A stretch of DNA of 64,000 bases from a virus (IMGVR_UViG_3300009868_000001:1-64000); one strand, 5' to 3'; shown: positions 34,873-64,000, counted from the stretch's first letter. The notes: generated by a model not told the origin, from the sequence alone. Program-made: numbers and translations.

Positions 34873-35352
34873 ATGTCAAACACAAATTATCAAGCATGTG
34901 CACAACTTGAGGTTGAGGATCTATATAAAGACAGTAAGAACACATTGGGCGACTTGATGAATCTTCAAAAAGATATTCAGGAAACAGTCTACGGCCATGA
35001 TTTTAAAAAACTGAGAGAAGAACCTCTTTCCGAGATGCGTAAGTTCTATGATTGGAATTACCATGCTATCCAGGATGAACTTAGGGAAACTTTTAATGCA
35101 CTTGGTGGTATAAATGATGGTATAGGTAATGGTGTATGGAAACCTTGGAAAAAATCCAATAAAGATTCCTATTCTATTAAGTTTTCTCAGATGTCTCCAA
35201 AAGACCTGCTTGAACTTAAATATGAACTTGTTGACATTCAACACTTCTTATTCAATATGATGCTCGCAATCGGAATGACACCAGAAGAGCTATTCAATCT
35301 TTATTTTGCCAAGAATAAAGAAAACCGCGACCGTCAAAAACGAGGATACTAA
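34873..35352 (+). CDS. 56: dCTPase/dUTPase, T4 gp56-like
   Basis: IQDELRE, VWKPWK, ELKYELVDIQHFLFNM and KNKENRDRQKRGY closely parallel gp56. Confidence 0.88.
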   Translation: MSNTNYQACAQLEVEDLYKDSKNTLGDLMNLQKDIQETVYGHDFKKLREEPLSEMRKFYDWNYHAIQDELRETFNALGGINDGIGNGVWKPWKKSNKDSYSIKFSQMSPKDLLELKYELVDIQHFLFNMMLAIGMTPEELFNLYFAKNKENRDRQKRGY

Positions 35353-41808: not shown

Positions 41809-42904
41809 TGGCATACGCCGAGTTTTTCTCTTAGGCGACCTTCACTTAGGCATAAGAAATAACTCATTAGAATGGAGTGAGATTCAACGGAAGTTTTTAA
41901 CTGAAATCTTTCCGCGACATATTGAACCTTATTTTAATCCTGAAACAGACATTCTTTTATTAGAAGGAGACATATTTCACAGTAGGGACTCCATAAACGT
42001 TCGTGTGTATAACGAAGCAGATAACATATTTAGGTTTTTAACCGATAAGTTTAAACGTGGAGTTTATGCAATAGTTGGTAATCATGATGTCTATTACAAA
42101 TCATCAAATGTTGTCAATTCTATCAGCATCCTTCAGAAAGTCTATTCTAACTTTCATGTTTTTACGTCTCCTCATATTTTAGAGATAAACGATAAACATA
42201 GGTTTTTAATGTTGCCTTGGATAGACAATATAGATTCCTTAAAACAGACGGTCACTTCTTATGTTGATTTGGCAGATTATGTTGTCTGCCATGCTGACAT
42301 AAACGGTTTTAGTCTCAATAAACATCAACAGGTTGAACATGGAATTGAACCTGCATCATTGAGTGATTTTAAGAGAGTCTATGCAGGTCACATACACCTA
42401 AAACAGGAAAAATGGAATGTCCTTTACACAGGAACTCCATATTCAATGGATCGTGGAGACCGAGACTCACAAAAGGGTTTCTATGTATTAGATGTGACTG
42501 GGGATGATGTGAATGAAACATATATAGAAAACTTAGAGTCTCCTAAGTTTATTAAGGTAAACATCTTAGACATCCTGGACATGAAGATTGACGACATACG
42601 TCTAATGTTCAAAAACAACTTTGTCGATATCATGATTGAGACTCGGATAGCTGCTAAGATGGATGTCTCAAAATTTAACGAAATATCAGAAGAATTTGGT
42701 GCCAGAAAGATAGAATTTTTTACATATTCAGATGACCCAATGGAACGAGTCAAACGCGAGGACCTTGCTCAAAAGGAACTTGGAATATTTGATGCATTTG
42801 ATATTTACTTAGAGGGTTCAAACATGGAAAGGACACATAGATCAAAGGTTGTTTCCAAGTTTAATGAGGTCTATAAAACAATGAAAGATTTAAGTCATGT
42901 ATAA
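41774..42904 (+). CDS. 47: Recombination endonuclease, Mre11/gp47-like
   Basis: GDLHLG, GDIFH, GNHD, CHAD, GHIH metallophosphoesterase motifs. Confidence 0.92.
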   Translation: MTMNLTKNIRIDGIRRVFLLGDLHLGIRNNSLEWSEIQRKFLTEIFPRHIEPYFNPETDILLLEGDIFHSRDSINVRVYNEADNIFRFLTDKFKRGVYAIVGNHDVYYKSSNVVNSISILQKVYSNFHVFTSPHILEINDKHRFLMLPWIDNIDSLKQTVTSYVDLADYVVCHADINGFSLNKHQQVEHGIEPASLSDFKRVYAGHIHLKQEKWNVLYTGTPYSMDRGDRDSQKGFYVLDVTGDDVNETYIENLESPKFIKVNILDILDMKIDDIRLMFKNNFVDIMIETRIAAKMDVSKFNEISEEFGARKIEFFTYSDDPMERVKREDLAQKELGIFDAFDIYLEGSNMERTHRSKVVSKFNEVYKTMKDLSHV

Positions 42905-43385
42905 ACCATTCATATCACCTAAGGTTTCAAGCCGAGTAAAGGATGGAAACTATAGAGTCTTTGCTGAATCTCAAATTACAGTCGGTGAAGAAATAGAAGT
43001 TTGTTCTTTTATTCCAATGTCACGTAGAGCAATCGCTGCTCTTGAAAAAAACGTTTGTTTTGACTTAACAGGACGGTTTTTTGTAAATCCAGAAGAGGCT
43101 CAAAAGGAGTCATTGGCACTTCATAAGTTAAAGAACGCACTAATAGATGCTGAGAGTTCAAACATAACTGGACAGAGGCTCTTGGAACTATTAAATGCAC
43201 AGGTAAACGAAAATTCTATAGAAAATTTTAAAATAGGCTCCATTTTATTAGGGTTTGGCAGTATCTATTCAAAGTCAGATGAACCTAATTGTATCTGTAC
43301 ATATTTACCAGACGAGAAACTTTACCTTATAAAAGCTGTAAAAAACATAGTACGAGGAGAAGAGCTCGTGCTTCCGAGACTATGA
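42897..43385 (+). CDS. SET-domain protein with degenerate catalytic motifs
   Basis: RVFAESQITVGEEIE, LGFGSIYSKSDEPNC, IKAVKNIVRGEEL follow SET architecture. Confidence 0.7.
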   Translation: MYKPFISPKVSSRVKDGNYRVFAESQITVGEEIEVCSFIPMSRRAIAALEKNVCFDLTGRFFVNPEEAQKESLALHKLKNALIDAESSNITGQRLLELLNAQVNENSIENFKIGSILLGFGSIYSKSDEPNCICTYLPDEKLYLIKAVKNIVRGEELVLPRL

Positions 43386-45049: not shown

Positions 45050-45246
45050 CAATACCACAAATTGGTTCGGCATTAAAAAAGGTCTCTAACCGTTCAGCAA
45101 TAGAAGAGCCTATTTTAACCACAATACAAAATCCTGTTAAAAAACAGGATACGAAGGCCAGTTCAAAACCTGCATCAAAGCAAGCGGTAAAATCTAAACC
45201 GGAAACGTCTGACCTTTCTAAAAATTACAAGTTTAAGAAAAAATGA
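45046..45246 (+). CDS. Small basic hypothetical protein
   Basis: 66 aa, Lys-rich, coupled to both neighbours. Confidence 0.5.
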   Translation: MTIPQIGSALKKVSNRSAIEEPILTTIQNPVKKQDTKASSKPASKQAVKSKPETSDLSKNYKFKKK

Positions 45247-46160
45247 GAGTTTACACAGGCCCAGACTTCGCAACAGTCTATAAAGAATCTATAACTGACT
45301 TAATACGCTCAGGCAATGCAAATGATCCAAGGGGAACTAAAACCAAGGAGTTTTTAAACACTGCTTTGGTTATGGAAAATCCTCAAGCATGTCTATATGA
45401 AAATGAGGTTAGATCATCACAAAGAAAATACGTAGCTGGAGAATTGTTATGGTATTATGCAGGACGAAAGGACGTCCAGTTTATAACCAAGTTTTCTAAG
45501 TTTTGGGAAGCTCTACAAAACCCAGATGGTACTGCCAATTCAGCATATGGACACCTTATATTTAAAAACGAAACAATTCACGGATTTACACAGTTTGAAT
45601 GGGTAGTCAAGAGTCTGCTTAAGGACTTAAACACAAGACAGGCAGTAATGCATCTAAACCTTCCGACCCATCAATATGAGGGAAATAAGGACTTTGTATG
45701 CACAATGTATATCAATTTCCATGTTCGTGAAGGCAAGCTTCATATGTCAGTTCATATGAGAAGCAATGACGTTATCACTGGAACACCCACTGACGTTGCG
45801 TTCTTTTCAACTCTTCAGATGCAAGTTCTTTTTATGATAAATCAAGTTCACCCAGAAATTGGTTTAGGAACTTATACACATATAGCAGACTCGTATCACG
45901 TATACGACAGACACTATGACCTTATTGAAAGGATGATTGAAAAACCTTTTTATCCGGTCGTTATACCATCAATTAAAAAGTCTTTGATTGCAGATGTTAG
46001 AGGAAATGCATCAGATGACATAATAAACCTGGTGAATTATGTCGAATCAGATTCTACTGATTTAATAATATGTCAAGAAGATGATTTACTTAAATGGATA
46101 GTAGATCATGCAATATTAAAAAGAAAGCCTGTTGAAAACCCATCTGTTATAACAGCGTAA
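45243..46160 (+). CDS. Thymidylate-synthase-fold dCMP hydroxymethylase-like enzyme (gp42-like)
   Basis: ELLWY, NSAYG, TRQAV, DFVCT catalytic Cys, MRSNDVITGTPTD with Asp at the specificity position, SYHVY. Confidence 0.8.
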   Translation: MRVYTGPDFATVYKESITDLIRSGNANDPRGTKTKEFLNTALVMENPQACLYENEVRSSQRKYVAGELLWYYAGRKDVQFITKFSKFWEALQNPDGTANSAYGHLIFKNETIHGFTQFEWVVKSLLKDLNTRQAVMHLNLPTHQYEGNKDFVCTMYINFHVREGKLHMSVHMRSNDVITGTPTDVAFFSTLQMQVLFMINQVHPEIGLGTYTHIADSYHVYDRHYDLIERMIEKPFYPVVIPSIKKSLIADVRGNASDDIINLVNYVESDSTDLIICQEDDLLKWIVDHAILKRKPVENPSVITA

Positions 46161-46170
46161 AAGAATATAG

Positions 46171-46515
46171 ATGAAAGAGATAGAAATATTCTTTGTTAAG
46201 GAACTTAAGACATATGTTGAGACACATGGAAAGAAAAAGAAGTCTGACTATATTCTCAATGTCAATAAGCTCATTAAATCAAAGTTCAACACAGAGCTGT
46301 TTGTTTTAAACAGAGTTCAGGCATTTATCTTGAACTATGAAATATTAAGACTTGTCGATAAGGTCCTTAGTATTAAGAATCAAAAGTATAATCGAATCAT
46401 TTATCTCAATTCTAACCTGACTGAATCTAAAGTCAATAATCAGATGCAGGTTTTAAGTAATCATTATCCTGATATTCAATTTAAACCATTTTCACTATAT
46501 GAGTCAGAGGAATAA
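46171..46515 (+). CDS. Hypothetical protein
   Basis: 114 aa ORF within the operon. Confidence 0.55.
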   Translation: MKEIEIFFVKELKTYVETHGKKKKSDYILNVNKLIKSKFNTELFVLNRVQAFILNYEILRLVDKVLSIKNQKYNRIIYLNSNLTESKVNNQMQVLSNHYPDIQFKPFSLYESEE

Positions 46516-46519
46516 TCAC

Positions 46520-47086
46520 ATGATTGTAGTTAACTTTTTTGCCGGTCCTGGCACAGGCAAGTCTACTCATGCTGCAATGCTGTTTGCAAAGTTAAAGACC
46601 CAAAACATTAATTCAGAACTTATCCAGGAATATGCCAAGGACAAGACTTGGTTGCGAGATTCTAAGACATTAGAAGTTCAACCATATATTGCTGGGAAGC
46701 AGTTTTTCCGTCAGGCTCGTCTTCGACATGATGTCGATGTAGCAGTAACAGATTCTCCTTTACTAATGGGTATGGCGTATTCAGGTTACGGTATCACAGA
46801 CAACTTCAATGGTTGGCTCGTAGATGCTTTCAAAATGTTTAGTAACATCAATATCTTTTTGGTAAGGAATACTGAACACCATAAGTTTAACCCAGCTGGA
46901 AGGTGGCAGGACGAAAACGCAGCAATCGAAAAGGATAAAGAAATCAAGGCAATACTTGATAAGTTTAACTTTCCATATTACACTATCGAAGTAAACGAGG
47001 ACTCTCACGATAGGGTGTATGAAACTGTAATTAATGACCTTAAATTTAGGGCTCCTCATTTATTTCAAAAAGAAGAAACAGTATGA
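46520..47086 (+). CDS. P-loop nucleoside/nucleotide kinase-like protein (NadR/AAA_28-type)
   Basis: GPGTGKST, EYAK, VTDSPL, GRWQ. Confidence 0.7.
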   Translation: MIVVNFFAGPGTGKSTHAAMLFAKLKTQNINSELIQEYAKDKTWLRDSKTLEVQPYIAGKQFFRQARLRHDVDVAVTDSPLLMGMAYSGYGITDNFNGWLVDAFKMFSNINIFLVRNTEHHKFNPAGRWQDENAAIEKDKEIKAILDKFNFPYYTIEVNEDSHDRVYETVINDLKFRAPHLFQKEETV

Positions 47087-47565
47087 ACAACTTAGTATAC
47101 CTGGCTGGAGCAATAACCGGCTGTACTTATAACGAATGCACAGATTGGAGACAAAAAGTCAGAGACGCAGTCCCATCTCATATTCAAACAATATCTCCAA
47201 TGAGAGGTAAACAAAGACTTAAGGAAATCGAAGAAGGTTCCACTATTAAAATGGTCTACGAGGACAATCCACTAACCTCGGCTAAGGGTATAAACACCAG
47301 GGACTATAACGATGTTCGTCGAGCAGACGCAATCTTTGTAAACCTTTTAGGAGCAAAGAAAGTCTCCATTGGAACTGTTATGGAGATCGCCTGGGCACGG
47401 GCATTTTCTAAGCCCGTTATATGTGTCATGGAACCGGACAATATACATCAACATACAATGCTCAACTATGCATGTGGATACATTCTAAATGACCTAGATT
47501 CAGCCATCTCAGTATTGATAACAGTATTAAGTACAGACCGTCAATTGGAGGACCTGACAAAATAA
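47083..47565 (+). CDS. Nucleoside 2-deoxyribosyltransferase-fold N-glycosidase (DNPH1/MilB-like)
   Basis: VYLAGAI, RDYNDVRRADAIFVN, SIGTVMEIAWA, KPVI. Confidence 0.82.
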   Translation: MNNLVYLAGAITGCTYNECTDWRQKVRDAVPSHIQTISPMRGKQRLKEIEEGSTIKMVYEDNPLTSAKGINTRDYNDVRRADAIFVNLLGAKKVSIGTVMEIAWARAFSKPVICVMEPDNIHQHTMLNYACGYILNDLDSAISVLITVLSTDRQLEDLTK

Positions 47566-47582
47566 TTAAAGATGTCCTAATA

Positions 47583-47849
47583 ATGTTAGGACTCACGATC
47601 CTGCAGAATGCAAGTTTTACATTAGTTGGGAGAGCCAGAAACAGTGATTCACTCTTATTTCATGCGTTAGCTGCAATTCTTTCAAATGGAATCTGGCTTC
47701 TAGTCATACGTAAGGTTGTAAGTAACTTTGACCAGCCGGTTTTAATGATAACTTACTTAATCGGTTCTGTTTCAGGTTCAGTTTCAATGCACTACATATC
47801 TATGAATTACATAGAAAAGAAATTTAAAGCAAAACAACAATCATCATGA
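47583..47849 (+). CDS. Small membrane protein (about 3 TM)
   Basis: 88 aa, mostly hydrophobic helices. Confidence 0.6.
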   Translation: MLGLTILQNASFTLVGRARNSDSLLFHALAAILSNGIWLLVIRKVVSNFDQPVLMITYLIGSVSGSVSMHYISMNYIEKKFKAKQQSS

Positions 47850-48169
47850 AGATAACATTATGTGGCTCTACTAAATTTAAAGAGCAATTCGAAAAAGCTA
47901 ACCAAGAACTTACTTTAGGTGGAAATATTGTATATTCAGTTGCAGCCTTTGGTCATGCAGATGCCAAGAACTGGACAGAAGAACAAAAGACTACCTTAGA
48001 CTTGGTACATTTTGCTAAGATTGAAGAGTCTGATGTGATTTACGTTATTGACGTAGACAATTACATTGGATTTTCGACTGCCCGTGAGATTCAATGGGCT
48101 AAGATGAGAGGTAAGAAGATATTTTATCTTTCAGAGACTCCGCCATACAAACTAGACGCAGTCATATAA
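47846..48169 (+). CDS. Second, minimal NDT-fold protein
   Basis: ITLCGS, KIEESDVIYV, YIGFSTAREIQWAKMRGKKIFY. Confidence 0.7.
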   Translation: MKITLCGSTKFKEQFEKANQELTLGGNIVYSVAAFGHADAKNWTEEQKTTLDLVHFAKIEESDVIYVIDVDNYIGFSTAREIQWAKMRGKKIFYLSETPPYKLDAVI

Positions 48170-48173
48170 AATT

Positions 48174-48200
48174 AAAAAGGGAGCATTTAGCTCCCTTTCT
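48174..48200. terminator. Bidirectional terminator between convergent operons
   Basis: AAAAAGGGAGC-ATTTA-GCTCCCTTTCT. Confidence 0.85.
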
Positions 48201-56268: not shown

Positions 56269-56919
56269 TTGGAGCTCAAAAATTTCATCCAGGCCCACCC
56301 AAATGAAAAATTTCTCATTCTTGGAAACGGAAAGTCAATTTTAAATCTTCCTAAAAAGATTGACTTAATTACCATTGGTGTAAATGACATAGAACGCCAT
56401 ATGATTCCTACTTATTTAGTTTTAACAGACAATCCTAATAGATTTGGTGTTGTAAATTCCAAACGAAGAAACCAAGTTCAATCGACTAAATCTAAGTTTG
56501 TCTTTGTTTTCGATAAATGGTGGACTTTTAAAAGTGATGACGGAAAAAACTTAGACTATAAAAGAATAGTCATGAAATTAGGTAAAAAGGGAAAACTTGA
56601 TAACCTAGATTCAAAGGACACTGTTGACTATTCAATAACGTCTCCGTATGTCGCTGCTATACTTGCATATAAAATGGGAGCCAAAGAAATTGGAATAATC
56701 GGAGTTGATTTTACGGACGGTCATTTTTATAGACCAGAGGATGGTGTTCACCCTATAGTTAAATCGTCTCGGTTAGAAGAGGTTGAGTGTCATTTCAAGG
56801 CATTAACTGAAGAGCTTGAACGTCGTGGTATTAAGGTTTGGAACTTAAGTGAAGAATCTATCTTAAAGCCAATTCCAAAAAAGAGCCTAAGTGAGTTTTT
56901 ATGTTACCAGACAACGTGA
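56269..56919 (+). CDS. Maf/DUF115-like (CstII/sialyltransferase-related fold) putative nonulosonate transferase
   Basis: ILGNGKS, TIGVN, PTYLVLTD, MGAKEIGIIGVDF, VWNLS; directly upstream of the NeuA-like gene. Confidence 0.65.
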   Translation: MELKNFIQAHPNEKFLILGNGKSILNLPKKIDLITIGVNDIERHMIPTYLVLTDNPNRFGVVNSKRRNQVQSTKSKFVFVFDKWWTFKSDDGKNLDYKRIVMKLGKKGKLDNLDSKDTVDYSITSPYVAAILAYKMGAKEIGIIGVDFTDGHFYRPEDGVHPIVKSSRLEEVECHFKALTEELERRGIKVWNLSEESILKPIPKKSLSEFLCYQTT

Positions 56920-57527
56920 AGATAGTTATACCTGCCAGAAGAGGTTCTAAGGGGTTTCCGTTTAAAAACAGAAAGCTTCTTCAATATACTCTTAATTCAA
57001 TTCCTAAAAAATATAGGAAAATGGTCTGGATAACGACGGATGACGAAAAAATTATAGATAAATGTAGAGGTGATTATAATGTAGTTGTTAGACCTAAATC
57101 ATTAGCACAGGATAATACTCCAATATGGAACTCCATGTTTCACCTCATTATTTCCAATAAGTCCTTTAAAAAGGACGACATTATCATAATGTTGTATTTA
57201 ACTTACCCAGATAGAAAATGGAAGTTAGTATTAAAGGCATTAAAGTTCTTTAAGAAACATAAAGCTAAAAGTCTTTTATGTAAAATTAAGGTTGATTCTC
57301 ATCCATATTTAATGATGTATGAAAACGGAATCAACGGCCGAATGATTGTATCTCACAATAAGTTTAGAAGACAAGACTATCCTGAAGTCTTTGAGCTCAG
57401 TCATTGTGTTTGCATCTTTAAAGTTAGTGAAATCCAAAACCTAGGTAGAAACCTATGGAATAATAATACAGTATACTTTCCAATTAAAAGACATCGGGAC
57501 GTAGACTATAAAAATCAATATAAGTAG
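56901..57527 (+). CDS. neuA: Acylneuraminate cytidylyltransferase (CMP-nonulosonate synthetase)
   Basis: IVIPARRGSKGFPFKN, ITTDD, RPKSLAQD, LTYPDR, RRQD, DVD. Confidence 0.85.
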   Translation: MLPDNVKIVIPARRGSKGFPFKNRKLLQYTLNSIPKKYRKMVWITTDDEKIIDKCRGDYNVVVRPKSLAQDNTPIWNSMFHLIISNKSFKKDDIIIMLYLTYPDRKWKLVLKALKFFKKHKAKSLLCKIKVDSHPYLMMYENGINGRMIVSHNKFRRQDYPEVFELSHCVCIFKVSEIQNLGRNLWNNNTVYFPIKRHRDVDYKNQYK

Positions 57528-57532
57528 TAAAA

Positions 57533-59077
57533 ATGAAAAGTGCGTTATTTACATACATTACAGAGTATTTGGTAAATGAGGTTGAACATGCAATAGATTC
57601 ATTTATGGTCAATCATGATGATTTTAATGGTAACATAATCATCCTGTATTCTAAATATGAACCGATAAGTGAAAAGACTCAACTTAAATTTAAGGAAAAA
57701 TATAACCCAATATTCAAATTAGTTTCAAGTGCTGGCCTTGATGTATTGTATTCAAGACTCAGAGGAGAGTTTAATCAAAACCCTTCAATCTGTCAATATC
57801 TTTTAGTTGAAGCATTAGGCGCCGTAAGTTATGACAAAATATATGCGATTTCGCCTAAAGTAACGATGACAGGCAAGTCAGACCAATATGTAAAAGCAGG
57901 TGACATAATTTTCTTTAAAAAGGATATGACTTATCGTGAAGATAAGAAGTTAATAGTTAGACTGGGACCAACTCTAGTCAATCCTAACTTTTTTATAGTT
58001 AACAAGCCGGCAATGGGGCAAAATTATCCAGGTTTTTTATATAAGAACCTTGTGTTTAATCGAGACCTAAGTACTGCAATGACTTATTTTCTCGTAAACT
58101 ATCTTTCAACCAAATGTCAGGTAAAAATTCTTGAAAATTCAGCTTTTCCAATAGTCGAAAATTTTTCAAATCAGGCATTTCCGATATTCGTTGCAAATCA
58201 ATCGAGGATGATAGGGATAGACTTTACGTTTATCAATAATGTAAATCAAAAAAATTATCTAAAGGTCCTGGATTTTTACAAAAAGAACCGGGAATTTGTT
58301 GATTCGTCTATCAAAGATAGACTTTTTAGGTATTCACCAGACAATTCTTTTGAAAATATTGACGTAGATATTGCAACTGAAATACCAGATGACTTGAAAT
58401 ACAATGTTCAGGGCCAAAATGAAAAATTATGTTTAATTGTCTCATTTAGAAACAGAGACCAACACCTCGAGGTATTTCTTCCATACATAACTGCGTACCT
58501 TGAAAATGTCAATAATATTCATGACTATCAAATAGTTATAGTCGAACAGGCCGACAATAAGCCATTCAATCGTGCTAAACTATTTAACATAGGTGTTAAT
58601 GAATGTCCTGGTTTCGATTACTATTGTTTTCATGACATTGACCTAATTCCAATCAATGTAGACTATTCATATTCACCTGATCCAACACACTTAGCTGTTT
58701 ATGTAGAACAGTTCGGTTATGAGATTCCATATGCTGAATATTGGGGAGGAGTCATTATTGTTCCGACTGATTCATTTAAAGCAGTTAACGGATTTAGTAA
58801 TGAATATTGGGGATGGGGAGCAGAGGATGATGATTTTTACCATCGTTTGTTAAATGGTAAATGTAATCCTGTTCGACGACCTGGCGGTAAATACAGGTCT
58901 CTTTCACATGTTAGTAATATGGATCCAGTCATACGTGAGAAAAACTGGAAACAGTTTTTGGAAGCTAAAAATTCTGGATTTAATAAGCAAATAAGCAGCG
59001 GTCTTTCAAACCTAGAGTATAAACTTCTTAGTGTTTCAGGATACGGCAAAATAAAATTTATCAAGGCTGAATTATGA
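57533..59077 (+). CDS. GT7 beta-1,4-galactosyltransferase-like domain fused to a divergent N-terminal domain
   Basis: FRNRDQHL, FNRAKLFNIG, FHDIDL, YWGGV, VNGFSNEYWGWGAEDDD. Confidence 0.88.
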   Translation: MKSALFTYITEYLVNEVEHAIDSFMVNHDDFNGNIIILYSKYEPISEKTQLKFKEKYNPIFKLVSSAGLDVLYSRLRGEFNQNPSICQYLLVEALGAVSYDKIYAISPKVTMTGKSDQYVKAGDIIFFKKDMTYREDKKLIVRLGPTLVNPNFFIVNKPAMGQNYPGFLYKNLVFNRDLSTAMTYFLVNYLSTKCQVKILENSAFPIVENFSNQAFPIFVANQSRMIGIDFTFINNVNQKNYLKVLDFYKKNREFVDSSIKDRLFRYSPDNSFENIDVDIATEIPDDLKYNVQGQNEKLCLIVSFRNRDQHLEVFLPYITAYLENVNNIHDYQIVIVEQADNKPFNRAKLFNIGVNECPGFDYYCFHDIDLIPINVDYSYSPDPTHLAVYVEQFGYEIPYAEYWGGVIIVPTDSFKAVNGFSNEYWGWGAEDDDFYHRLLNGKCNPVRRPGGKYRSLSHVSNMDPVIREKNWKQFLEAKNSGFNKQISSGLSNLEYKLLSVSGYGKIKFIKAEL

Positions 59078-59691
59078 AAATTGATTTGACTAAAATTCCT
59101 GCTTTTTGGTTTGGTGGCATTAAACCAAATCGGGCAAAAAGAATCACAAATATGTTTAAGCGGACAGGTATCAATGCTTCCAAGCTTGAAACATTTATAG
59201 ATTCCGACCCGGTTATGGGTTGTGCACTCAGTATGAAAAACGCCCTTAAGGTCGTCAATCAAATAGACGAACCATGTTTAGTATTTGAGGATGACGCAGA
59301 AACTACTGCCCATGTTAGGTCTATGGTTATTGAAGTTCCTGATGATGCAGATGCAGTTTATCTTTGTTTAAGTAAATATGGAGTAATGAAGGATTGGAAA
59401 CTTCAACACCGAGATAAAATGGCTTCAGAAAAGGATTTTTCCTTTGTTAGGACCAGAGATCCTAGATTTGTTAAGTTAAACAATATGGTAACGTTGACTG
59501 CTGTTGTTTACATAACTGAGAGGTATAAGAAACATGCATTAAAAGAAATTGATTCAGTGATTCCTACCAAACTTCACTGTGATGTTCCTATTGCATTGGC
59601 CTTACGTGATTTTAATGTATATGCTATGACCAAACCTCTTTTTTATCAAGAGTGCCCATTGTCTAAAAAAACAACCAATTTTGTGCTATGA
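59074..59691 (+). CDS. GT25-like glycosyltransferase
   Basis: GCALS, CLVFEDDA, LTAVVYI, HCDV, LFYQ. Confidence 0.65.
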   Translation: MKIDLTKIPAFWFGGIKPNRAKRITNMFKRTGINASKLETFIDSDPVMGCALSMKNALKVVNQIDEPCLVFEDDAETTAHVRSMVIEVPDDADAVYLCLSKYGVMKDWKLQHRDKMASEKDFSFVRTRDPRFVKLNNMVTLTAVVYITERYKKHALKEIDSVIPTKLHCDVPIALALRDFNVYAMTKPLFYQECPLSKKTTNFVL

Positions 59692-60512
59692 TAGCAAGAA
59701 CTTTTTTCTCTAGAAAATGGAACGATAATGGGGAACCTTGGTTTCAAGTTGACCTTCCGTTTAAGTGTGATATTTACATGAATTATATAGACCATGAAAC
59801 CCTTGCTAAAACCCCATCAGGCGTTAAAAAGGTTTTCATGGACATAAACGAACCTACGTTTTACGGTCAGTCTGTTGAGACTTTATTGGAAAACGCTGAT
59901 AAATTTAATGCTATAATAACTAAACACCAAAGTGTTATAAATTCGATTCCTTGGGCAACAACTGATATTTGGGCATCAAGCTACATTATTCCCAACAAAA
60001 ATATAGACAAGGATTTCTCCGTTTCCTTTCTTTGCACGAATAAAAAAGGTTACCCTGGATACGAAGTCAGACACCAGCTTTGGAACAGACAGGACGAAAT
60101 AACAGTCCCAAAAAGATTTTGGAGTTCAAAATATCTACCAGTAGACCCCAATCGCATTTTACCTGGAACCGGTGAAAATACCGATAAGATTGTTTTATTT
60201 AAGTCTATGTTTTCAATCTGTCCTGAAAATTCAAGTGAAGAGAACTACCTTACTGAAAAGATTATGGATTGTTTTTTAACGATGACTGTTCCAATCTATC
60301 GTGGGTGCACGAATTTTGAAAAATATTTTAATCCAAACGGTGTCATCTTTTTTAATGACATTGACGATTTAATTCAAAAGATTAATAATTTAACTCCTTA
60401 TGAATATTTCAGTAGACTTCCAGCTATGCAGGAAAATTTCAACAAAGCTATGAAAATGATGAATCCCGGTGAAAGAGTTAGGGATCTCATTTTACAAAAA
60501 ATAAAACAATAA
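59688..60512 (+). CDS. GT10 alpha-1,3-fucosyltransferase-like
   Basis: FSICPENSSEENYLTEKIMDCFLTMTVPIYRG alpha-3 FucT motif. Confidence 0.85.
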   Translation: MIARTFFSRKWNDNGEPWFQVDLPFKCDIYMNYIDHETLAKTPSGVKKVFMDINEPTFYGQSVETLLENADKFNAIITKHQSVINSIPWATTDIWASSYIIPNKNIDKDFSVSFLCTNKKGYPGYEVRHQLWNRQDEITVPKRFWSSKYLPVDPNRILPGTGENTDKIVLFKSMFSICPENSSEENYLTEKIMDCFLTMTVPIYRGCTNFEKYFNPNGVIFFNDIDDLIQKINNLTPYEYFSRLPAMQENFNKAMKMMNPGERVRDLILQKIKQ

Positions 60513-60513
60513 C

Positions 60514-61269
60514 GTGGATTTAATAGTCGATAATAAAAACAAGGTCCTAGTGTTTTGGAATGCTAAGTGTGGGTGTTCTTTTGTAAAAGCATTATTTTTA
60601 CAATCTCGTGAAATACCTTTACCTGAGTTTGAGCAGTTACATGAAATCATAGGATATGGGTATAGTCCAAACCAGGAATTTTCGTTTATTGATACAAACG
60701 ATTTAGAAAGATATTCTTCATATAAAAAGGTCCTTATCGTTAGGGACCCATATAAAAGATTGGTGAGCGGATTCTTAGAAAAGATCCCCAAATGGATTAA
60801 GGCTGGTCACTTTAATCAATCATGTTACCTGTCATTTAACGATTTTATTTCTAAAATATCAGAGATAAACGGAGTAGTTTCATGTGGCTCTTCTTCTTTT
60901 TATGACATTAAACACTTCATTCCCCAGTTTTCTGAAAAATATGAAATATTTGAAAAGATGGGGTGGACTTTTGACTATGTGATAGACGTTTCTCAGCTTT
61001 CTAAAAATATAGATGTGTTTGAGAACTTATTCAGTTCTAAACTCGATGAAGTCGCTGCATTTGAAATTGGTAGCTCACACCAAGTCAAATATTCCGATTC
61101 AATTAGAGAAGGTTCAGCAGACGTTCCACTAGAAGAATGGATGAACACTAACGTTTTCCCAAACTACAAAAGCTTTTATATGAACGAACAGGTCATGCAG
61201 TCCTTTAATCATCTCTATTCAAATGACCTACTAAAATTAAAAGAACTTGGTTTTGAATATTCATTATGA
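60514..61269 (+). CDS. Carbohydrate sulfotransferase (Sulfotransfer_2-like)
   Basis: 5'-PSB-like NAKCGCS, 3'-PB VRDPYKRLVSGF, HFIPQ, YSNDL. Confidence 0.8.
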   Translation: MDLIVDNKNKVLVFWNAKCGCSFVKALFLQSREIPLPEFEQLHEIIGYGYSPNQEFSFIDTNDLERYSSYKKVLIVRDPYKRLVSGFLEKIPKWIKAGHFNQSCYLSFNDFISKISEINGVVSCGSSSFYDIKHFIPQFSEKYEIFEKMGWTFDYVIDVSQLSKNIDVFENLFSSKLDEVAAFEIGSSHQVKYSDSIREGSADVPLEEWMNTNVFPNYKSFYMNEQVMQSFNHLYSNDLLKLKELGFEYSL

Positions 61270-62084
61270 AATTAGGAGTATCATATAGTGTGTTTGATGG
61301 CGTTGAATTACTTGAATCATCAATAAAACAGATCAGAAAGGACGTTGATTTTATAGATGTTCAGTATCAGGAGAAATCATGGTTCGGTAAGCCTGCAAAG
61401 CCTATTGATTTATGTATTCTTAATGAACTTAAGAAAAAAGGTCTCATTGATTCTCTGACTCTATTTAAGAACTTTTATGAGCTTAAGCCCATAAAGATGC
61501 ACGTCATGCAGTCTAAAATATTTGAGACCGCTAAGAGAAATGCCGGGTTGGACTCATGTCTAAAGAAGGGTTGTACTCATTTTATGAATATGGACGTTGA
61601 CGAATTTTATGACACGGAACAGTTTAGAAAAGCAAAATCAATAATTGAAGAAAAGGACCTTGAAACGACTGCTGTTTCGTATTTGAATTACGTAACACCG
61701 ACTTTACATAGAGGTTATTCTCCTCATTTGGTTCCATTCATTCATAAAATAACGCCTGCGGCCAGACATACTAAATTTCAACCGTATTTTCCAGGAGTAG
61801 ATCCTACTCGTGGTCTTGGAGATGAGTCTTATAAGAGATGGCGTATATTTCCTAAGGAGGATATCATAATGCATCATATGGAAATGGTCAGAAGGGATCT
61901 TGCATCGAAATACGAGTCTACTTCAAGGTTTTATTTAGAACGTAATAGAATTAATGAACTGGTTCAACTTGTTGAAGAGTCTAAATCAAAAAACTCCATA
62001 AATTTTAAAGGTATAATATATCCTGGAGCAAAGGAAGATTCTATTTTGACTCCTGTTGAAAATAAATTTGGGATTAAAATATGA
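61266..62084 (+). CDS. GT-A fold glycosyltransferase (GT2-like)
   Basis: ETAKRNAGL, MDVDEFY DxD motif, MHHM. Confidence 0.65.
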   Translation: MKLGVSYSVFDGVELLESSIKQIRKDVDFIDVQYQEKSWFGKPAKPIDLCILNELKKKGLIDSLTLFKNFYELKPIKMHVMQSKIFETAKRNAGLDSCLKKGCTHFMNMDVDEFYDTEQFRKAKSIIEEKDLETTAVSYLNYVTPTLHRGYSPHLVPFIHKITPAARHTKFQPYFPGVDPTRGLGDESYKRWRIFPKEDIIMHHMEMVRRDLASKYESTSRFYLERNRINELVQLVEESKSKNSINFKGIIYPGAKEDSILTPVENKFGIKI

Positions 62085-62911
62085 CCCAGATAATTGCAGA
62101 GATAGGAATCAATCATAATGGAAGTCTTGAGATTACTAAAAGACTGATAGATGAAGCAGTTGAAGCAGGTGCTGATTATGTAAAGTTTCAAAAAAGAGAC
62201 CCAGATATCTGCGTTCCTGATGAAATGAAAAATGTCTTACGTGACACTCCATGGGGCAGAATAACTTACCTTGAATATAAGAAGAATTTAGAATTTTCAT
62301 ATTTAGAATATGAAGAGATTGACAAATACTGTAAACTTAAAGGGATTAAATGGTTTCTTTCAGTTTGGGACCTTAACTCTGCTGAATTTGCTCGGGAAAT
62401 CGATCACACTATTGTAAAGATTCCATCAGCTCTTGCTCTAGACCAGCCCCTGTTAGAATATTGTAGAAAACATTTTGAGACTCTCATTATATCTGTCGGT
62501 ATGTGTGAAGGCTATCAAATTCAAAGCATAATAGATAGAATTAAGCCGGATGTGATTATGCACACAAATTCATCATATCCAAGTCCAATTGAAGAACTAA
62601 ACCTAAACCACATTAAATGGCTTGAAAAGGTGTCTAATGGGTCGGGTCATAGATTTGAAATTGGTTATTCTGGACATGAATTTGGATTGGTGACGACATT
62701 TGCTGCAGTTGCAATGGGAGCGACTTGGATCGAAAGACATATCACATTAGACAGGACGATGTGGGGTTCTGACCAAGAGTCTTCAGTCGAACCGTTGGGC
62801 TTTAAAAAACTTGTCAAGGGTATTAGAGATATAGAAAAATCGCTTGGAGAATATGGACCACGTAAGGTCACTCCTTCTGAGCATCAAAAAATAAAATCAT
62901 TAAGAAAATGA
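62081..62911 (+). CDS. neuB: N-acetylneuraminate/nonulosonate synthase, short form without SAF domain
   Basis: IIAEIGINHNG, GADYVKFQKR, KIPSA, HTNSSYP, GYSGHE, IERHITLDR, GSDQ. Confidence 0.92.
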   Translation: MTQIIAEIGINHNGSLEITKRLIDEAVEAGADYVKFQKRDPDICVPDEMKNVLRDTPWGRITYLEYKKNLEFSYLEYEEIDKYCKLKGIKWFLSVWDLNSAEFAREIDHTIVKIPSALALDQPLLEYCRKHFETLIISVGMCEGYQIQSIIDRIKPDVIMHTNSSYPSPIEELNLNHIKWLEKVSNGSGHRFEIGYSGHEFGLVTTFAAVAMGATWIERHITLDRTMWGSDQESSVEPLGFKKLVKGIRDIEKSLGEYGPRKVTPSEHQKIKSLRK

Positions 62912-63876
62912 AAAGAGCATTAGTATGTGGTGCAGGTGGATTCATCGGAAGCCATCTTGTAAAAAGACTTAAGAATGAAGGATTCTATGTAATTGGCGCC
63001 GATTTAAAGATGCCGGAGTTTAGTAAAACAGCAGCAGACAAGTTTATAATAATAGACCTTAGAGAACCGGGTCTTTGTGATGCTCTATTTAGAGAAGGAA
63101 AGTTTGATCATGTGTATCAGCTTGCTGCCGATATGGGCGGAGCAGGTTATATTTTTACTGGAGAACATGATGCGGATGTGATGCACAACTCTTCACAAAT
63201 TAATCTTAATATTGCTAAACTTTGTGTAAAGTTTAACGTTGAACGTGTATTTTATTCTTCATCTGCTTGTATGTATCCTGCATACAATCAAGAGGACCCT
63301 AATAATCCTAACTGTAAAGAAGATTCAGCATATCCTGCAAACCCAGACTCAGAATACGGTTGGGAAAAGCTTTTCAGTGAAAGGTTATATCTAAGCTTTC
63401 ATAGAAACTATGGCTTAAATGTTAGGATAGCCAGGTTCCATAACATATTTGGACCTGAAGGAACCTGGACAGGCGGAAAAGAAAAGGCTCCAGCTGCCAT
63501 ATGTAGAAAGGTTGCTTCAGCTGAAACTGGAACGTCAATCGATATCTGGGGAGATGGAGAACAGACCCGATCGTTTCTTTATATTGATGAATGTGTTGAA
63601 GGAATCAGAAAATTAATGGAATCTGATTTTGTTGGTCCGGTCAATATTGGTTCAGATGAAATGGTCACTATAAACGACCTTGCAAACAGGACAATTACAA
63701 TATCAGGAAAAACCCTTTCCTTAAACCATATTGAAGGTCCTCTTGGAGTAAGAGGTAGGAATTCTGATAATAATTTAATTCAGGAAAAATTGGGATGGTC
63801 ACCTAATAAACCATTAAATGATGGTCTTGCTTCCACTTATGCTTGGATTGACGAACAAGTTAAAAAGACTAAGTAA
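62908..63876 (+). CDS. GDP-mannose 3,5-epimerase-like extended SDR
   Basis: GAGGFIG, AADMGGAGYI, YSSSACMYP, YGWEK, RFHNIFGPEGTWTGGKEKAPAAICRK, GVRGRNSDN. Confidence 0.88.
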   Translation: MKRALVCGAGGFIGSHLVKRLKNEGFYVIGADLKMPEFSKTAADKFIIIDLREPGLCDALFREGKFDHVYQLAADMGGAGYIFTGEHDADVMHNSSQINLNIAKLCVKFNVERVFYSSSACMYPAYNQEDPNNPNCKEDSAYPANPDSEYGWEKLFSERLYLSFHRNYGLNVRIARFHNIFGPEGTWTGGKEKAPAAICRKVASAETGTSIDIWGDGEQTRSFLYIDECVEGIRKLMESDFVGPVNIGSDEMVTINDLANRTITISGKTLSLNHIEGPLGVRGRNSDNNLIQEKLGWSPNKPLNDGLASTYAWIDEQVKKTK

Positions 63877-63877
63877 T

Positions 63878-64000
63878 GTGAGTAAGACATATTTAATAGA
63901 CATAGACCAGACCATTTCTAAGACAGACGGTCTGGCTTATGAAAGGGCAGAACCAATACTAAACAACATCAACACTGTAAATCGATTATTTGATGAAGGT
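63878..64000 (+). CDS. HAD-family phosphatase, N-terminal part (truncated by the window end)
   Basis: Manual translation from GTG 63878: MSKTYLIDIDQTISKTDGLAYERAEPILNNINTVNRLFDEG; DxDxT motif I. Confidence 0.7.
   Translation, partial: MSKTYLIDIDQTISKTDGLAYERAEPILNNINTVNRLFDEG

Follow-up and report, generated by a model that had tools for sequence, protein, structure and literature searches.

In bacteriophage T4, in which cytosines are fully modified, the deoxycytidine monophosphate (dCMP) hydroxymethylase gp42, an enzyme of the thymidylate synthase (TS) fold, and the dCTPase gp56 form a pyrimidine scheme together with dCMP deaminase and thymidylate synthase. Published residues tell enzymes of this fold apart: hydroxymethylation goes with Ser94, Tyr96 and an Asp at position −3 from the catalytic Cys, where methylases have a hydrophobic residue (PMC6400193), an Asp at the position of Escherichia coli Asn177 confers dCMP specificity, an acidic residue at Leu143 goes with non-methyl products, and an Asn at Asp169 marks the recently discovered 5-hydroxy-dCMP synthases (PMC13326640), to which RB69 gp48 belongs. 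In the nucleoside-antibiotic systems MilA/MilB and BcmA/BcmB, a cytidine monophosphate (CMP) hydroxymethylase is paired with an N-glycosidase for hydroxymethyl-CMP; residues that set the preference of MilA for CMP or dCMP have been described (PMC6400193), as has the MilB motif F-L-(G/A)-(G/A)-P-F-(R/K), which stacks on the base and reads its 5-hydroxymethyl group (PMC4081090). The nucleoside 2'-deoxyribosyltransferase (NDT) fold of these glycosidases is shared by DNPH1 (Rcl), a 2'-deoxynucleoside 5'-monophosphate N-glycosidase that clears 5-hydroxymethyl-deoxyuridine monophosphate (hm-dUMP). Here we analyse a 64,000-nucleotide viral sequence (IMGVR_UViG_3300009868_000001:1-64000, hereafter the window) in which genes for a TS-fold enzyme, a P-loop kinase, two NDT-fold proteins (NDT1 and NDT2) and a small membrane protein (TM) lie in one operon that a first-pass annotation had read as a single cytosine-modification module. 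Our analysis leans, by a modest degree of confidence, towards two separate things side by side, a conserved hydroxymethylase core and a lineage-specific accessory cassette of likely nucleotide-pool enzymes.

The TS-fold enzyme matches PF00303 (Thymidylat_synt) with an E-value of 2.6e-25 over profile positions 2–258 of 266 and contains the motifs DFVCT and RSNDVITGTPTD. Its best matches among PDB sequences are the CMP hydroxymethylase MilA (7.6e-21) and the T4 dCMP hydroxymethylase (4.5e-16), both ahead of any ThyA, and its best score against the NCBIfam ThyA equivalogs is 65 bits with a cut-off of 327. In a MAFFT alignment, E67, S100, Y102, R132 and D150 correspond to T4 E60, S94, Y96, R123 and D145, and C153, R173, S174, D176 and D184 to T4 C148, R168, S169, D171 and D179, with D184 situated in RSNDVITGTPTD at the position of T4 D179 and E. 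coli Asn177. Across 30 homologues (47–81% identity) these active-site residues do not vary; P0002 (81%) and P0003 (71%) are two relatives of the enzyme. By alignment, the enzyme thus carries all published signature residues of T4-type dCMP hydroxymethylases (the Glu, Ser-x-Tyr, Asp-x-x-Cys and R-S-x-D elements and the Asp for Asn177), in agreement with the earlier proposal of a dCMP-specific, hydroxymethylating enzyme. It differs from gp42 in overall identity (27%), in a C-terminal extension of about 70 residues and in a Gln at T4 R124. Although MilA is its best match, the MilA residues Lys133 and Ala176 that go with CMP preference are replaced by Arg and Ser, the dCMP-type pair of T4. Because the signature residues match and the D169N-type Asn is absent, we infer that the product is 5-hydroxymethyl-dCMP (hm-dCMP).

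Other identities were considered for the enzyme. Asp184 (Asn177 in E. coli), Asp150 (Leu143) and a score far below the equivalog cut-offs speak against a canonical ThyA. A 5-hydroxy-dCMP synthase of the RB69 gp48 type, with which the enzyme shares the TS homology, the Asp at N177, the acidic residue at L143 and a T4-like phage setting, is made unlikely by D176, which is Asp where RB69 gp48 has Asn (RSND here, RSQN in RB69); identity to gp48 is 23%, and no arabinose-pathway genes are found nearby.

Further members of the T4 scheme are encoded in the window or in its relatives. The gp56-like dCTPase gene that had been pointed out at 34873 holds up well, since its product shares 37% identity with T4 gp56 (E 2e-31) over its full length of 159 residues (10–159 against 17–171), matches phrog_173 (E 4.7e-21) and scores above the cut-off for PF08761; homologues are kept in three large relatives (G001–G003). 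In related phages an extra gene of 157–164 codons between the TS gene and the conserved gene orf114, seen in all 80 of the related loci compared below, encodes a dCMP deaminase (E about 1e-22) and abuts the TS gene (for instance L013:8884-9357 and L062:8860-9354); it is absent from the corresponding window position (46160–46171, where 10 nt separate the TS gene from orf114), and none was seen in the 109-kb record of which the window is part. Four near-complete relatives (G001–G004), including a genome of 271 kb that has terminal repeats, encode a canonical ThyA (211–289 bits) alongside the divergent TS enzyme (71–87 bits); in the record at hand, a 41% fragment, the TS-like gene is the only TS gene seen. 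The dCTPase, hydroxymethylase, deaminase and thymidylate synthase of the relatives together match, as predicted from their sequences, the T4 pyrimidine scheme. Since the signature residues are present and the relatives combine ThyA, dCMP deaminase and dCTPase in this manner, replacement of cytosine throughout the genome by 5-hydroxymethylcytosine (5hmC) or a derivative, as the first-pass annotation had suggested, is most likely and remains the best reading.

In the proposed pathway, Cys153 would attack C6 of dCMP while Asp184 reads the cytosine, and Asp150, Ser100 and Tyr102 would position the water that converts the methylene intermediate to hm-dCMP. The dCTPase would turn dCTP into dCMP, keeping cytosine out of the triphosphate pool and feeding the hydroxymethylase, so that cytosine in the phage DNA would be replaced by 5hmC or a derivative. 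This TS/dCTPase part belongs to the already known T4-type systems, and it stands in a T4-like replication and recombination module within a jumbo-phage setting.

Two side observations concern the same genes and their genomes. The canonical ThyA proteins of the relatives (L082–L085, L088; G001–G004) occupy unusually long frames (380–429 aa) with the Pfam match broken into two to three pieces, which could reflect an insertion, an intein or an intron-like element. The sites GATC, GTAC, CTAG and CATG are depleted in the genome of the window (observed/expected 0.45–0.70), with ratios of 0.87–1.07 in eight related loci. Restriction-site avoidance was discarded as a proxy for cytosine modification because GATC, GTAC and CATG are equally depleted in pieces of T4 and RB69, whose cytosines are fully modified, which makes the proxy uninformative.

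To compare the locus across phages we used an alignment-driven scan that returned 376 related viral loci, of which 80 were kept; the scans for the kinase and NDT families likewise comprised 80 loci each. In the 80 loci related to the window the order gp47-SET-gp46-TS-(deaminase)-orf114 is conserved, and an orf114 homologue lies 3' of the TS gene, after the deaminase gene, in 79 of them. The orf114 product received no Pfam, PHROG or Atlas assignment, and its Atlas structure matches are of low confidence. No counterpart of the kinase, NDT1, TM or NDT2 was detected in the 80 syntenic loci, either by tblastn or by hidden Markov models built from the family alignments. The kinase and NDT2 were likewise not found in five large relatives (G001–G005), nor was NDT1 apart from one weak NDT-like match in G005, and these relatives keep the same TS enzyme, dCTPase, deaminase and ThyA. 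Their plus-strand operon stops after the orf114 homologue, with convergent late genes next. The kinase-NDT1-TM-NDT2 cassette is therefore a lineage-specific insertion at the 3' end of the operon and, being absent from the 80 loci and the five relatives, is not needed by the core pathway; the notion of a single integrated module finds only partial support. None of the genes of the RB69 modification cluster (gp45–gp55) matches the cassette, which may plausibly be linked to the cytosine-modification pathway.

The window comes from a viral record of 109 kb in IMG/VR with an estimated completeness of about 41%, and its source is an uncultured jumbo phage of roughly 250–270 kb. Its replication genes (gp56-like dCTPase, split family B polymerase, UvsX/RecA, gp41-type helicase, gp47 and gp46) are arranged in a T4-like layout, and its major capsid protein is nearest (about 33%) to those of an uncultured 462-kb phage and of Lak phages. 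A blastn search of the region against phage records gave no match, and scanning viral contigs with a single protein likewise yielded nothing closely related. All open reading frames (ORFs) and motifs listed by the first-pass annotation are present at the given positions, together with one ORF that it had missed, orf114, between the TS and kinase genes (Table 1). Little space separates the genes, those of the kinase and NDT1 and those of TM and NDT2 sharing 4 nt (ATGA), and a strong bidirectional terminator follows NDT2.

Table 1. Features of the operon and the upstream dCTPase gene (window coordinates).
Feature	Coordinates	Strand	Evidence
gp56-like dCTPase/dUTPase, all-alpha NTP pyrophosphohydrolase	34873..35352	+	T4 gp56 homology, phrog_173, PF08761
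TS-fold enzyme with T4-type dCMP hydroxymethylase signature, 305 aa	45243..46160	+	PF00303, signature residues
orf114, conserved partner, part of the clade's core TS operon	46171..46515	+	synteny
P-loop kinase of NMP-kinase fold, AAA_28 / NadR-RNK type	46520..47086 (alternative start 46499)	+	AAA_28, model
NDT1, NDT-fold enzyme of YtoQ-like family, Glu nucleophile intact	47083..47565	+	PF05014
Small membrane protein, two to three transmembrane segments, phage-only family	47583..47849	+	hydrophobic segments, phrog_33664
NDT2, minimal NDT-fold protein, 107 aa	47846..48169	+	AlphaFold model, Foldseek
Bidirectional intrinsic terminator, closes the operon against convergent late genes	48174..48200	.	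11-bp and 9-bp GC-rich stems, T tracts on both strands

Two further regions of the window differ in their conservation. The SET-domain ORF between gp47 and gp46 (42897–43385) was picked up by tblastn in 43 of the 80 related loci and so counts as a stable component of the clade's Mre11/Rad50 operon. The NeuB/nonulosonate glycan island (62144–62851, operon 56269–64000) is present in this phage and not in the four near-complete relatives, and is another lineage-specific island.

Within the cassette, the earlier assignment of two NDT-fold proteins was confirmed, for NDT1 by a Pfam family and for NDT2 by structure. NDT2 has only a sub-threshold DUF4406 match and no Pfam or PHROG name, and its profile gave no sequence-level match among PDB sequences, so that it was placed by structural search only. 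Foldseek with its AlphaFold (AF2) model (mean predicted local distance difference test score, pLDDT, 93) returned the CMP N-glycosidase BcmB as the best match (E 1.3e-4), followed by NDTs, DNPH1 and MilB, and on this model NDT2 is predicted to have the NDT fold. Its family is very large (6,446 cluster representatives at E<=1e-3), with G7, S8, S31, D52, H55, K58, G75, S77 and E81 invariant and D52, S77 and E81 at catalytic positions. The MilB P-F-(R/K) motif is not found in NDT2, which reads T-L-C-G-S-T-K-F instead. The C-G-S-T-K part of this stretch resembles C-G-S-I-R, the phosphate loop of DNPH1. The NDT fold and the Glu nucleophile are further likenesses to DNPH1, with template modelling (TM) scores of 0.59–0.69 between the NDT2 model and DNPH1 chains; the relation is however one of structure only, and NDT2 has Thr4 in place of the catalytic-site Tyr of DNPH1. 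Many NDT2 homologues are tandem duplicates or lie within larger proteins, and one (P0396) carries a DUF5131 domain (phage Gp37/Gp68-type) as a fusion.

The neighbourhoods of NDT2 homologues show a recurrent link to hydroxymethylase-type TS genes. A TS gene lies within 6 kb of the NDT2 homologue in eight of the 80 viral loci, and all eight are of the D/D/D hydroxymethylase type, none being canonical. NDT2 stands beside such a gene in at least four other phage lineages, often with a kinase: in L273 the order is kinase-NDT2-TS with genes abutting or overlapping, a similar arrangement is seen in L265 and L266, and the order in L287 is TS-deaminase-NDT2. The kinases of these trios belong to a different family from the cassette kinase. 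As the TS proteins of the different lineages are only 20–44% identical, the linkage is not a single inherited block; a second locus scan, seeded with the TS-linked members, returned the same lineages. The stricter idea of NDT2 as a dedicated partner of hydroxymethylases was rejected, because any TS gene was present in only six of 24 large NDT2-bearing phage records. The link is thus recurrent and non-obligate, and the hydroxymethylase–glycosidase pairing proposed earlier stands in part: NDT2 recurs beside hydroxymethylase-type TS genes, but most NDT2-bearing phages have no TS gene, and NDT1 has neither the MilB motif nor a preferential link to Asp-type TS genes. In one NDT2-bearing phage (L498, G022:C1:77745-78173) the TS homologue has Asp at the L143 position and Asn at N177, the pattern expected from its sequence of a dUMP hydroxymethylase. 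No paper in the library searched connects phage NDT-like genes with dCMP hydroxymethylase, and the pairing appears to be undescribed so far. Among the cassette components NDT2 has the best prospect of a tie to hydroxymethyl-pyrimidine nucleotides, for example by clearing hm-dUMP in the way of DNPH1, and the logic of protecting DNA from 5-hydroxymethyluracil (hmU), formed when hm-dCMP is deaminated, would hold here as well. A bolder and only tentative proposal is that NDT2-type proteins form an uncharacterised viral family of monophosphate N-glycosidases that are partners of dCMP hydroxymethylases in 5hmC phages, either clearing hm-dUMP as a viral counterpart of DNPH1 or releasing or exchanging the modified base.

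NDT1 scores above the PF05014 cut-off (36.7 bits). Its family is a tight one, with over 800 members from phages and Patescibacteria, and the family profile matches YtoQ (2.4e-6), BlsM (2e-4) and, at about 5e-3, MilB and BcmB among PDB sequences. Invariant in 30 homologues are Y6, D74, S95, G97, E101, R23, R41, K43, N120, H122 and H124, and D74, S95, G97 and E101 align to MilB D78, S97, G99 and E103, the ribose Asp, the phosphate Ser-x-Gly and the Glu nucleophile. The P-F-(R/K) motif of MilB is not found, the family having Y-L-A-G-P-I-T (A-I-T in the window protein). The sequence match to Rcl (2khz) is marginal (E 0.74); Tyr6 is present in NDT1, unlike the Phe of ribo-specific NDT enzymes. In other phages the commonest neighbours of NDT1 are a dATP/dGTP diphosphohydrolase domain, a T4-type deoxynucleoside monophosphate (dNMP) kinase and DNA polymerase A, and TS genes near its homologues are canonical in five of seven cases (160 loci). 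From its sequence and company NDT1 looks like a general deoxynucleotide-pool enzyme. NDT1 and NDT2 both keep the catalytic Asp/Glu pair and the phosphate-binding Ser/Gly. Their most likely role is that of N-glycosidases or transferases with nucleoside monophosphates as substrates, which would trim or re-route a nucleotide pool.

The small protein encoded between NDT1 and NDT2 had been described as having three transmembrane segments; it does appear to be a membrane protein, with two to three hydrophobic segments read from its 88 residues. It matches DUF5698 below threshold (E 1.4e-4) and phrog_33664 (E 4e-6) and belongs to a phage-only family of about 90 aa, with Atlas clusters of 52–75 mostly viral members. 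Family and Atlas searches gave no match to PnuC.

The kinase matches AAA_28 (E 3.6e-12, 47.2 bits with a cut-off of 27) and is started at M8 in the database gene call (P0121); a homologue, P0122, shares 68% identity. With its AF2 model (pLDDT 94.6), VIA-align gave Z scores of 17.4, 17.2 and 16.6 for ribosylnicotinamide kinase (RNK) domains of NadR (best alignment with a root-mean-square deviation of 2.7 over 168 residues) and at most 15.9 for thymidylate kinases, a margin of about 1.5 that must be regarded as modest for a model. The PHROG label of the family is "thymidylate kinase", and an identity with T4 gp1 was rejected for lack of similarity (BLASTP E 0.23). The P-loop kinase of the first-pass annotation is therefore real but not gp1-like, and its nearest structural relatives fit the NAD-related role that had been named as the outcome speaking against a part in cytosine modification. 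Homologues occur in many jumbo phages, where the neighbour analysis found no conserved partner gene and, in 80 phage loci, no Asp-type TS gene beside them. About six loci contain NADAR fusions of kinase homologues (L161:1443-2402, L130 and L149 among them) and in about five a Macro domain adjoins (for example L117:8260-8901). The same genome encodes, beyond the window and about 48 kb from the cassette, a NAMPT/NAPRTase-family protein (G000:C1:95925-96623, E 7.7e-40), as well as a 956-aa protein with a CTP_transf_like (cytidylyltransferase/NMNAT-type) domain (L500:565-3435, minus strand), and when the genome of the window (G000) was compared with its five relatives, NAMPT was found only in G000 and G005, the two with an NDT-like gene. 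As judged from sequence, NAMPT and the NMNAT-type domain suggest an NAD+ salvage pathway in the phage. The phage NAD+ pathway NARP3 pairs a membrane importer of nicotinamide riboside (NR), PnuC, with a NadR-like enzyme (PMC13464706); here the kinase stands alone without an NMNAT domain, the 88-aa membrane protein gives no PnuC match, and the cassette adds two NDT genes that NARP3 lacks. For the kinase itself, the modelled similarity makes an NR kinase acting with the phage NAMPT and NMNAT-like genes a serious possibility that we place somewhat short of even chances, and we grant the same standing to an hm-dCMP kinase.

How the cassette relates to the core can thus be read in several ways. Our preferred reading, on which the kinase-NDT1-TM-NDT2 cassette would have been inserted at the 3' end of a self-sufficient core operon, has to accommodate a number of findings that weigh against it. 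The cassette is closely coupled to the TS gene within one operon, which speaks against its being independent. For the core, the assignment of the product rests on the signature residues, of whose alignment positions one, T4 R124, differs (Gln). Neither a gp1-type (PF21448 DNMK) nor a Tmk-type dNMP kinase turned up here or in the related genomes, which leaves the relatives with no assigned enzyme for converting hm-dCMP to hm-dCDP. A T4-type alpha- or beta-glucosyltransferase, which the first-pass annotation had also failed to see, gave no family match, a weak negative given that the control genomes gave none either. Of the six TS genes in the large NDT2-bearing records three are canonical, and the record itself covers only about 41% of the genome. 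If, instead, all genes of the operon formed a single module for cytosine modification, the kinase would act on hm-dCMP in the role of gp1, and the NDTs on hydroxymethyl-pyrimidine or residual canonical monophosphates, or in a base swap, so as to enforce cytosine replacement. The single operon with its translational coupling and single terminator, the kinase-NDT2-TS(Asp) trios in three other lineages and the TS-deaminase-NDT2 order in a fourth, the exclusively hydroxymethylase-type TS genes beside NDT2, the (hm)CMP glycosidases BlsM, MilB and BcmB as the nearest solved relatives of NDT1 and NDT2, the PHROG label of the kinase and the lack of another dNMP kinase all speak for this. We nevertheless think it rather unlikely, because the cassette is missing in every relative that keeps the same TS enzyme, dCTPase and deaminase, the kinase is nearest to NadR RNK with homologues never beside an Asp-type TS gene, NDT1 has no base-reading motif of the MilB kind (PMC4081090) and keeps mostly canonical TS company, and most NDT2-bearing phages have no TS gene. 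MilA/MilB and BcmA/BcmB make a similar comparison: the catalytic Asp, Ser-x-Gly and Glu are kept and in other phages NDT2 immediately precedes TS genes of the hydroxymethylase type, but P-F-(R/K) is replaced by P-I-T in the NDT1 family and by S-T-K in NDT2, and the relatives run the TS gene without an NDT partner.

No more probable, in our view, is a cassette that serves NAD+ or nucleoside salvage, or counter-defence, in the manner of NARP2/NARP3, with a NadR-type NR kinase, a small membrane importer and NDT-fold enzymes of ribosyl transfer or hydrolysis working with NAMPT and the NMNAT-like domain. The AAA_28 and NadR RNK matches, the NADAR and Macro associations of homologous kinases, the presence of both NAD+ genes, the restriction of NAMPT within the clade to the two genomes with an NDT-like gene and the composition of NARP3 fit such a unit. 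Against it stand the membrane protein, which does not match PnuC, the remoteness of NAMPT and the narrow Z margin over thymidylate kinases, and NDT1, which has phosphate-binding Ser/Gly, a Tyr at the position associated in published work with 2'-deoxyribose preference and neighbours in other phages that encode dNMP kinase, dATP/dGTP diphosphohydrolase and DNA polymerase, not NAD genes. Considerably less probable than either is a phage without 5hmC in its DNA, in which the TS-like product would be 5-methyl-dCMP or 5-hydroxy-dCMP, or would be deaminated to hm-dUMP/dTMP, or cleaved by NDT2 to free 5-hydroxymethylcytosine for a small molecule as in MilA/MilB and BcmA/BcmB. The deaminase gene abutting the TS gene in relatives could be taken in this sense, as could one NDT2-TS locus with an S-adenosylmethionine (SAM) methyltransferase and a kinase, which recalls the bacimethrin genes. 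However, Asp150, Ser100 and Tyr102 constitute the hydroxymethylation signature (PMC6400193), D176 is not the Asn of the 5-hydroxy-dCMP synthases (PMC13326640), the canonical ThyA kept in relatives means that no alternative route to dTMP is needed, the conserved dCTPase points to exclusion of cytosine from the DNA, and no NDT protein accompanies the TS gene in the relatives.

With a hydroxymethylase core and an accessory cassette side by side as the favoured arrangement, the core extends the predicted 5hmC viruses by a whole clade of freshwater-type jumbo phages whose distant relatives include T4, Lak and other huge phages. The same enzyme is found in more than 370 related viral contigs, which bears on sequencing, restriction and CRISPR targeting of their DNA. 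The cassette illustrates that operon adjacency can mislead, as the kinase in it may serve NAD+ salvage, which is an established theme of phage counter-defence. The more useful lead is NDT2, a member of a very large viral family that is repeatedly flanked by a kinase on one side and a TS gene of the hydroxymethylase type on the other. If NDT2 polices the hydroxymethyl-pyrimidine pool, it would represent an unrecognised step in viral DNA hypermodification; if it releases or exchanges the modified base, these loci would be the first hydroxymethylase–glycosidase pairs of the MilA/MilB kind in viruses.

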